The notes under the pieces are model-generated. The model searched no databases. It had not been told where the DNA came from and saw only the letters and a list, made by a program, of their open reading frames with translations. 64,000 nucleotides of DNA, from sequence record OP688485, one strand, 5' to 3'. The stretch comes from Escherichia phage EP_H11. Below are positions 32,054 through 32,560 of this stretch, in pieces; within the stretch, counting starts at the first letter, position 1; each line of letters starts with the position of its first letter. Made by a program: the position numbers and the translations under genes.

Positions 32054-32560
32054 ATGAATAAATCTGAAGCTCTGTTAGGACTCATCCAGTCTATCGACGA
32101 GGGTTATTCCTCGGTTAAATTCTGTCCGGACTCCGATGCCTGGATAGACAGTCTTAAGCAGGTTATCTCCGAAGTCGCTGATTACGATAAGATGAACTTC
32201 GATACTGGTTACGATAACCACTGCACCCTTATGTATGCTCCAGGAACTGGTGCTCCGGATGAGGGAACTATTGCTGATCTGGTGGGTAGCAAACTCCATC
32301 TGAAGAATCCTCGCTACGAGATCTTCGGTGAGAATGCTAACTACCTGGTGCTAGCGTTCGATAGCGATCTGCTACAGTCGTTTAACTATCGACTCCGTGC
32401 ATCTGGAGAGGTACCGTCTGAGATCAGTGCGGAATACTCTCCTCATATAACTCTGGCTAAGGAGGTAGAGAATCTGGATGTCTCTACCTTACCAGAATTA
32501 CCGACCGATCTGTATTTAAACATCACTAGCGTAACTGCTGAGGAAATCAAGAATGACTAA
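32054..32560 (+). CDS. 2H phosphoesterase-superfamily protein (LigT/cyclic phosphodiesterase-like)
   Basis: Two H-x-T-x motifs (NHCTLMY and PHITLAK) with spacing typical of 2H phosphoesterases. Confidence 0.5.
   Translation: MNKSEALLGLIQSIDEGYSSVKFCPDSDAWIDSLKQVISEVADYDKMNFDTGYDNHCTLMYAPGTGAPDEGTIADLVGSKLHLKNPRYEIFGENANYLVLAFDSDLLQSFNYRLRASGEVPSEISAEYSPHITLAKEVENLDVSTLPELPTDLYLNITSVTAEEIKND

Follow-up and report, generated by a model that had tools for sequence, protein, structure and literature searches.

Does the short gene at positions 32054-32560 of Escherichia phage EP_H11 encode an enzyme that destroys the cyclic nucleotide signals of bacterial immunity? The gene lies in a 64,000-nucleotide stretch of the phage (sequence record OP688485; hereafter, the window), and its product is an exact match of WBU87659.1, a "hypothetical protein" of the same phage that belongs to a 90%-identity cluster of 12 sequences. 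An initial annotation had noticed two H-x-T-x motifs in the translation and proposed a 2H phosphoesterase, possibly a nuclease acting on cyclic nucleotide signals. We found that the protein is a divergent member of the Acb1 (anti-CBASS 1; CBASS, cyclic oligonucleotide-based antiphage signaling system) family of 2H phosphodiesterases (PDEs). Judging from sequence and predicted structure, we consider it probable that it is an active Acb1-type enzyme, one that would cleave the cyclic di- and trinucleotides of CBASS and blunt abortive-infection signaling.

The gene is real and under purifying selection, since orthologs are maintained at 94% (Escherichia phage IME392), 89% and 70% (two metagenomic clusters) amino acid identity and the ratio of non-synonymous to synonymous substitution rates (dN/dS) against the IME392 ortholog is 0.118 (24 synonymous and 11 non-synonymous changes). 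A Shine-Dalgarno-like sequence, GGTGA, lies upstream of its ATG. Both motifs reported earlier are present, as HCTL (residues 56-59) and HITL (residues 131-134), separated by 75 residues in a protein with only three His in total. Taken alone, the two motifs are weak evidence, because at least two HxS/T motifs appeared in 5.8% of 100,000 shuffles of the protein and stood 60-90 residues apart in 1.3%. Across 58 family members, the tetrad of the two motifs is nearly invariant (first H in 57, first T in 57, second H in 57 and second T in 56).

Profile searches placed the protein in a defined family. Its sole significant Pfam match was to Acb1 (PF23474; E 2.9e-6), a family that was also matched by all 55 aligned relatives and that stands as a precomputed annotation on relatives P0001 and P0002. 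Searches against PHROGs returned phrog_755, labeled "RNA ligase" (E 5e-9), which is matched as well by the known Acb1 enzymes: gp57B of phage T4 at 5e-68, Acb1 of Erwinia phage FBB1 at 7e-58 and PDE-9 of Burkholderia phage BCSR5 at 2e-20. Since T4 Acb1 itself is the best phrog_755 member, we rejected the "RNA ligase" label, which several GenBank records of relatives also carry, as a legacy name for the Acb1 family. NCBIfam and PADLOC searches with the protein gave no matches, PF02834 was not reported among its Pfam matches, and a single-sequence phmmer search of PDB sequences found nothing; solved homologs surfaced only through profiles. The family profile matched FBB1 Acb1 (7t26) at E 1.2e-29 and PDE-9 (9q2g) at E 2e-22. 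A profile built from the nine close-clade sequences alone matched the same two structures at 3.1e-7 and 1.4e-5, with the first non-Acb1 2H protein at 0.0086. Identity to the T4, FBB1 and PDE-9 enzymes is ~21-24%.

A word-indexed homolog search returned only two close relatives, and 54 relatives at E <= 1e-3 emerged when a profile was run exhaustively against 1.84 billion representative proteins. One of the 54, a 3390-aa repeat protein (P0008), was discarded as spurious, its match having come through 12 short "GHDNGATL"-like stretches. Two IMG/VR queries were scanned; one found no relative, and the other found only a contig (L005) that was already in hand. Apart from the gene considered here, the Acb1-family profile matched the C-terminus of the portal protein of cyanophage Pam3 (PDB 8hds chain A, residues 472-617) at E 4e-16, both HxT/S motifs included. 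Because of this match, an Acb1-like domain may, on sequence grounds, be carried in a virion.

Structure prediction and comparison had been named at the outset as a check on the 2H assignment, and both this check and the Acb1 profile match bear the assignment out. An AlphaFold2 model computed with the 55-sequence alignment (predicted local distance difference test score, pLDDT, 89.8; predicted template modeling score, pTM, 0.83) consists of six strands, two core helices and an N-terminal helix (residues 3-11) of lower confidence. The model predicts a 2H fold, with the two H-x-T/S-x motifs in a pseudo-symmetric two-lobe β structure, and the nearest solved structures, by a clear margin, are Acb1-family enzymes, namely two that cleave 3'3'-cyclic GMP-AMP (3'3'-cGAMP). 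The earlier suggestion of a cyclic-nucleotide signal nuclease is thus also favored, as far as computation reaches, by way of Acb1 family membership.

Residues were compared with those of T4 gp57B (sequence from AF158101) by reading columns of the 58-sequence alignment, and roles in base stacking, adenine N6 reading, catalysis and the lid follow the published structures (Hobbs et al., Nature 2022, PMC9117128). Together with the catalytic tetrad, three of the five T4 ligand-contact residues are kept, i.e., Y18, F91 and E163 (Table 1). The last of these corresponds to T4 E141, which reads adenine N6, and its column holds E in 42 of 58 sequences. At the position of T4 F107 the protein has S125; this column is aromatic in 47 of 58 sequences (Y 29, F 13 and W 5) and holds S or A in six of the eight close-clade relatives, and the loop around it is 1-2 residues longer in the close clade. 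Relative to T4 and FBB1, extra residues (42-54) lie ahead of H56, an insertion of ~9 residues before the first HxT motif. At the C-terminus, the stop codon takes the exact place of the T4 lid Trp, W147, so that the protein ends one residue short of it. Since 34 of 58 sequences, the entire close clade included, have a gap at W147, the alignment indicates that the Trp lid defines the T4/FBB1 type and not the whole PF23474 family.

Table 1. Coordinates of the features discussed, in window numbering.
Feature	Position	Strand	Remarks
Split RNA polymerase β', two genes	26582-28096 and 29676-31244	+	Rpb1 domains 3-5 fragment upstream of domains 1-2 fragment
RNase HI-type gene	31244-31765	+	Two genes upstream of the Acb1-family gene; Pfam RNase_H E 4e-9; phrog_531
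99-aa orphan open reading frame (ORF)	31750-32049	+	Ends 4 nt before the Acb1-family start; conserved in L004
Acb1-family 2H phosphodiesterase coding sequence	32054-32560	+	168 aa; ATG start; TAA stop at 32558-32560
N-terminal 15 residues (MNKSEALLGLIQSID), candidate lid	32054-32098	+	Predicted helix 3-11, ahead of first core strand
Y18	32105-32107	+	T4 Y12, base stacking; column Y 51/58
First catalytic motif, H56-C-T58-L	32219-32230	+	Residues 56-59; T4 H44/T46; from sequence and 58-sequence alignment
F91	32324-32326	+	T4 W74, base stacking (F66 in FBB1); column F 45, W 5, Y 3 of 58
S125	32426-32428	+	At T4 F107 base-stacking position; non-aromatic
Second catalytic motif, H131-I-T133-L	32444-32455	+	Residues 131-134; T4 H113/T115; from sequence and 58-sequence alignment
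C-terminus, E163-E-I-K-N-D168-stop	32540-32560	+	Aligned column by column to T4 E141-P-L-K-L-D146-W147
114-aa orphan ORF	32553-32897	+	Overlaps end of Acb1-family gene by 8 nt (ATGACTAA); conserved in L004
Intrinsic-terminator-like hairpin	32908-32954	+	17-bp stem, 3-nt loop, T-run; very strong
Family X DNA polymerase (PolX; β-thumb, HHH_8)	37272-38045	+	Adjoins NAD-dependent ligase
NAD-dependent DNA ligase	38110-40053	+	PolX-ligase pair also near Acb1-like gene in L006 and L009
dUTPase/dCTP-deaminase-like protein	56040-56510	+	

From family membership we infer how the protein would act. It would be a small, single-domain, metal-independent 2H phosphodiesterase, most likely produced during infection of E. 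coli by a YerA41/IME392-like phage. Cyclic di- or trinucleotides made by host CBASS cyclases would be bound in a U-shaped groove of the six-stranded core, with the bases stacked on Y18 and F91 and an adenine N6 read by E163. With the tetrad of H56/T58 and H131/T133 as catalyst, the ribose 2'-OH would then attack the 3'-5' phosphodiester, leading in two steps first to a 2',3'-cyclic phosphate intermediate and then to a linear 3'-phosphate, a product that would no longer activate CBASS effectors.

Several observations weigh against this interpretation. The PF23474 score (27.5 bits against a gathering score of 27) is marginal, just 0.5 bit over the threshold, and the match leaves uncovered the first 33 positions of the model and its lid end (139-144). 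The C-terminal lid (T4 residues 145-152, with W147) is absent, and T4 Acb1 deprived of its lid was inactive in vivo in a Panoptes assay (Doherty et al., 2025, 10.1101/2025.08.21.671373). Ser at the F107 position supplies no aromatic for stacking. Two structural groups of phage 2H PDEs were inactive on all 18 messengers assayed by Doherty et al. (2025), so the fold and tetrad do not guarantee a CBASS substrate, and the IME392 ortholog is outside the 16 enzymes that were purified there. Two more such points concern a possible replacement for the lid. By analogy with PDE-9, the solved structure of which has its lid in N-terminal residues 1-15 and not at the C-terminus (Doherty et al., 2025), the conserved 15-residue N-terminal helix may act as a lid. 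What speaks for this idea is confined to length and conservation, and across the family there was no clear anticorrelation between N-terminal length and the presence of a C-terminal Trp (medians ~14.5 and 16 residues).

As regards length, 15 residues precede an EGY motif in the close clade; in PDE-9, which likewise lacks a C-terminal Trp, the G of the G-x-Y motif is preceded by 16 residues. As regards conservation, close-clade members down to 31-41% identity keep an amphipathic pattern, K-[AS]-x-x-[LIV]-[LI]-x-x-L-x-x-[IV]-x-EGY. The helix is predicted with low to moderate confidence (pLDDT 53-78 over residues 3-11), and the N-termini of the EP_H11 protein and PDE-9 share no convincing sequence similarity. 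Published work holds that the core of these enzymes, not the lid, determines substrate preference (Doherty et al., 2025).

The alternative that fares best, although we consider it rather unlikely, is an active Acb1-family enzyme whose natural substrate is not a CBASS signal, having instead a narrower or different messenger range. Its substrate could be the cyclic oligoadenylates of type III CRISPR systems, 2'-5'-linked oligoadenylates or a messenger yet undescribed. A remodeled pocket would fit this explanation, with S125, no Trp lid and the ~9-residue insertion before the first HxT motif; of the four stacking residues, one has been replaced and a second, the lid Trp, is absent. The low identity to the characterized enzymes is in keeping with it as well, as is the report that substrate range tracks variation of the 2H core, with some groups narrow and two inactive on the 18 messengers (Doherty et al., 2025). 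However, the structures closest to the model are those of two enzymes that cleave 3'3'-cGAMP, the protein retains the adenine-reading Glu along with two stacking aromatics, and Acb1-type pockets are reported to refuse rings of more than three bases (PMC9117128).

Within the Acb1 reading itself, the substrate spectrum may differ from that of T4 Acb1, because the Trp lid is absent, Ser replaces F107 and the N-terminal helix is perhaps a lid. The close clade comprises ~9 clusters at 50% identity among the 1.84 billion representatives; none has a Trp lid, and seven of the nine, that of the EP_H11 protein included, have Ser or Ala in place of F107. A tentative and, in our estimate, unlikely extension is that these proteins form a rare Acb1 clade in which the lid function has moved to the conserved N-terminal helix and the base pocket has been remodeled, giving a messenger specificity unlike that of T4 Acb1. 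By analogy with PDE-9, such a clade might cleave a CBASS signal while sparing the Panoptes decoy 2'3'-c-di-AMP, or it might target another signal. Its gene may also move together with an RNase HI gene as a module of two.

Quite unlikely, in our judgment, is a role in nucleic-acid end-processing, in which the protein would be a LigT-like 2',3'-cyclic phosphodiesterase or of the 2'-5' ligase type and would work in a replication or RNA-processing module, possibly with RNase H. It is the gene neighborhood that lends this explanation some appeal, with replication and repair genes (RNase H, PolX and NAD-dependent ligase; Table 1) around the Acb1-family gene. Relatives at 35-41% identity likewise have replication and nucleotide-metabolism surroundings that include PolX, NAD-dependent ligase, NADAR and ribonucleotide reductase (RNR). 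On L005, a distant 110-kb viral contig, an RNase H gene (6501-7325) adjoins the Acb1-like gene in reversed gene order, and its product is 31% identical to the RNase H of the window (E 3e-21). The 12.5-kb locus of that contig has just three genes with homologs in the window (Acb1-like, RNase H and NADAR), two of which are this pair. We regard the linkage as weak, because the Acb1-like gene has other neighbors, with no RNase H beside it, in four other contigs (L006, L008, L009 and L010). The protein did give a Pfam match to 2_5_RNA_ligase2 (PF13563), but at 14.7 bits against a cut-off of 27 and over residues 103-143 only, and the "RNA ligase" names of relatives, which might also be taken to favor end-processing, are the legacy label described above. 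Among the 99 candidate ORFs of the window, Pfam searches found neither RNA-repair partners (RNA ligase or polynucleotide kinase) nor companion Acb2, Tad-like or metallo-β-lactamase (MBL)-type Apyc1 genes at E <= 1e-3.

Finally, it is highly improbable that the HxT motifs arose by chance without phosphoesterase function or that the protein is a catalytically dead binder, for even if shuffled sequences at times carry two such motifs and sponge-type anti-CBASS proteins exist, the Acb1 homology by profile and structure, the near-invariant tetrad and the purifying selection on the gene all stand against it.

Immediately around the Acb1-family gene, the flanking 99-aa and 114-aa orphan ORFs had no Pfam or PHROG match, and the terminator-like hairpin (stem 32908-32944) ends the run of co-directional genes immediately past the 114-aa ORF. 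The phage as a whole is 93% nucleotide-identical to Escherichia phage vB_EcoM_IME392, which a 2025 paper places among YerA41/Carin-5-like phages with hypermodified thymidine. Pfam content of the window includes a 5-hydroxymethyldeoxyuridine (5-hmdU) DNA kinase, a thymidylate-synthase homolog, dCTP-deaminase-like proteins and a dUTPase, and this hypermodification gene set fits the YerA41/IME392 group. The window also encodes PolA, PolX, NAD-dependent ligase, topoisomerase II, RNase H and split RNA polymerase β' fragments. Sigma-70-like promoters are strongly depleted in 29000-35500 (1 found against 11.1 ± 3.4 expected), and this depletion, together with the β' genes, fits transcription by a multisubunit polymerase of the phage.

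Other genes of the window are recorded here in their own right. ORFs within 15-25320 hold a thymidine-hypermodification toolkit, with the 5-hmdU DNA kinase (E 4e-35), the thymidylate-synthase homolog, a YfbR-like 5'-deoxynucleotidase and a PIG-L deacetylase. A match to the betaine/carnitine/choline transporter (BCCT) family (E 1.6e-91) came from one ORF of the first 25 kb. We provisionally assign this match to 8174-9556 (+; 460 aa), the only ORF there with many membrane-like segments (n = 9). A phage-encoded BCCT transporter would be unusual and might supply a precursor for thymidine hypermodification. A 139-aa protein (40582-41001, +) matches the PinA peptidase-inhibitor family (E 3.6e-9, above the gathering score), which includes the T4 inhibitor of the host Lon protease. 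Within 41325-64000 are ORFs for a DUF4326 protein, an Rv2179c-like 3'-5' exoribonuclease, a RyR-domain protein, a PP-binding (acyl carrier-like) protein and glycosyltransferases, and a NADAR-domain protein (53010-53669, +) is 40% identical to the NADAR protein of L011. The NADAR and DUF4326 proteins may be further counter-defense candidates.

The EP_H11 protein is a new divergent member of an already known family, since PF23474 is curated and the IME392 ortholog, AXY86065.1, is listed in Supplementary Table 1 of Doherty et al. (2025), without an enzyme ID, among 75 phage 2H PDEs collected by structure search. That ortholog is absent from the supplements of Hobbs et al. (2022). Interest lies in the natural loss of both the Trp lid and the F107 stacking residue, in the rarity of the clade and in the type of phage that carries it. 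If active, the enzyme would be an immune-evasion factor of unusual E. coli phages with hypermodified thymidine and their own multisubunit RNA polymerase, and a naturally lid-less Acb1 variant without the F107 stacking residue would join the few enzymes that have been studied. The 2H core is reported to set which immune messengers are destroyed and, hence, whether decoy systems such as Panoptes are tripped (Doherty et al., 2025); a lid-less variant would be a convenient natural test case for this idea. As to annotation, the "hypothetical protein" entries WBU87659.1 and AXY86065.1 can become Acb1-family 2H phosphodiesterases, and the "RNA ligase" label of phrog_755 should not spread further.

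Among known systems, the LigT / 2',3'-cyclic phosphodiesterase / 2'-5' RNA ligase superfamily (E. coli LigT, 5LDI; D. radiodurans cyclic phosphodiesterase, CPDase, 5H7E; PF13563, PF02834) lies at a root-mean-square deviation (rmsd) of 3.5-3.8 Å from the model. LigT-type proteins are larger, bear extra elements, act on RNA ends or 2',3'-cyclic nucleoside monophosphates (cNMPs) and are without the Y/F/E set of base contacts of the Acb1 type. Acb1 of T4 (gp57B) and of FBB1 (PDB 7T26/7T27; PF23474; Hobbs et al., Nature 2022) has ~21% identity to the EP_H11 protein. In comparison with T4 Acb1, the EP_H11 protein has no C-terminal lid, S125 in place of F107 within a slightly longer loop, a region ahead of the first strand that is 6 residues longer and the ~9-residue insertion before the first HxT motif; its carrier is not T4-like but a YerA41/IME392-like phage with hypermodified thymidine and a multisubunit RNA polymerase of its own. 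PDE-9 of BCSR5 (PDB 9Q2G/9Q2Y) resembles it in the 15-residue length of the N-terminus and in having no C-terminal lid. The two differ in that the N-terminus of PDE-9 bears Y9 and Arg/Lys, whereas that of the EP_H11 protein is rich in Leu/Ile and has no aromatic, and in that PDE-9 continues after its second HxT motif into a different, longer C-terminal region without an equivalent of E141 in the alignment. PDE-9 cleaves 3'3'-cGAMP and spares 2'3'-c-di-AMP (Doherty et al., 2025).
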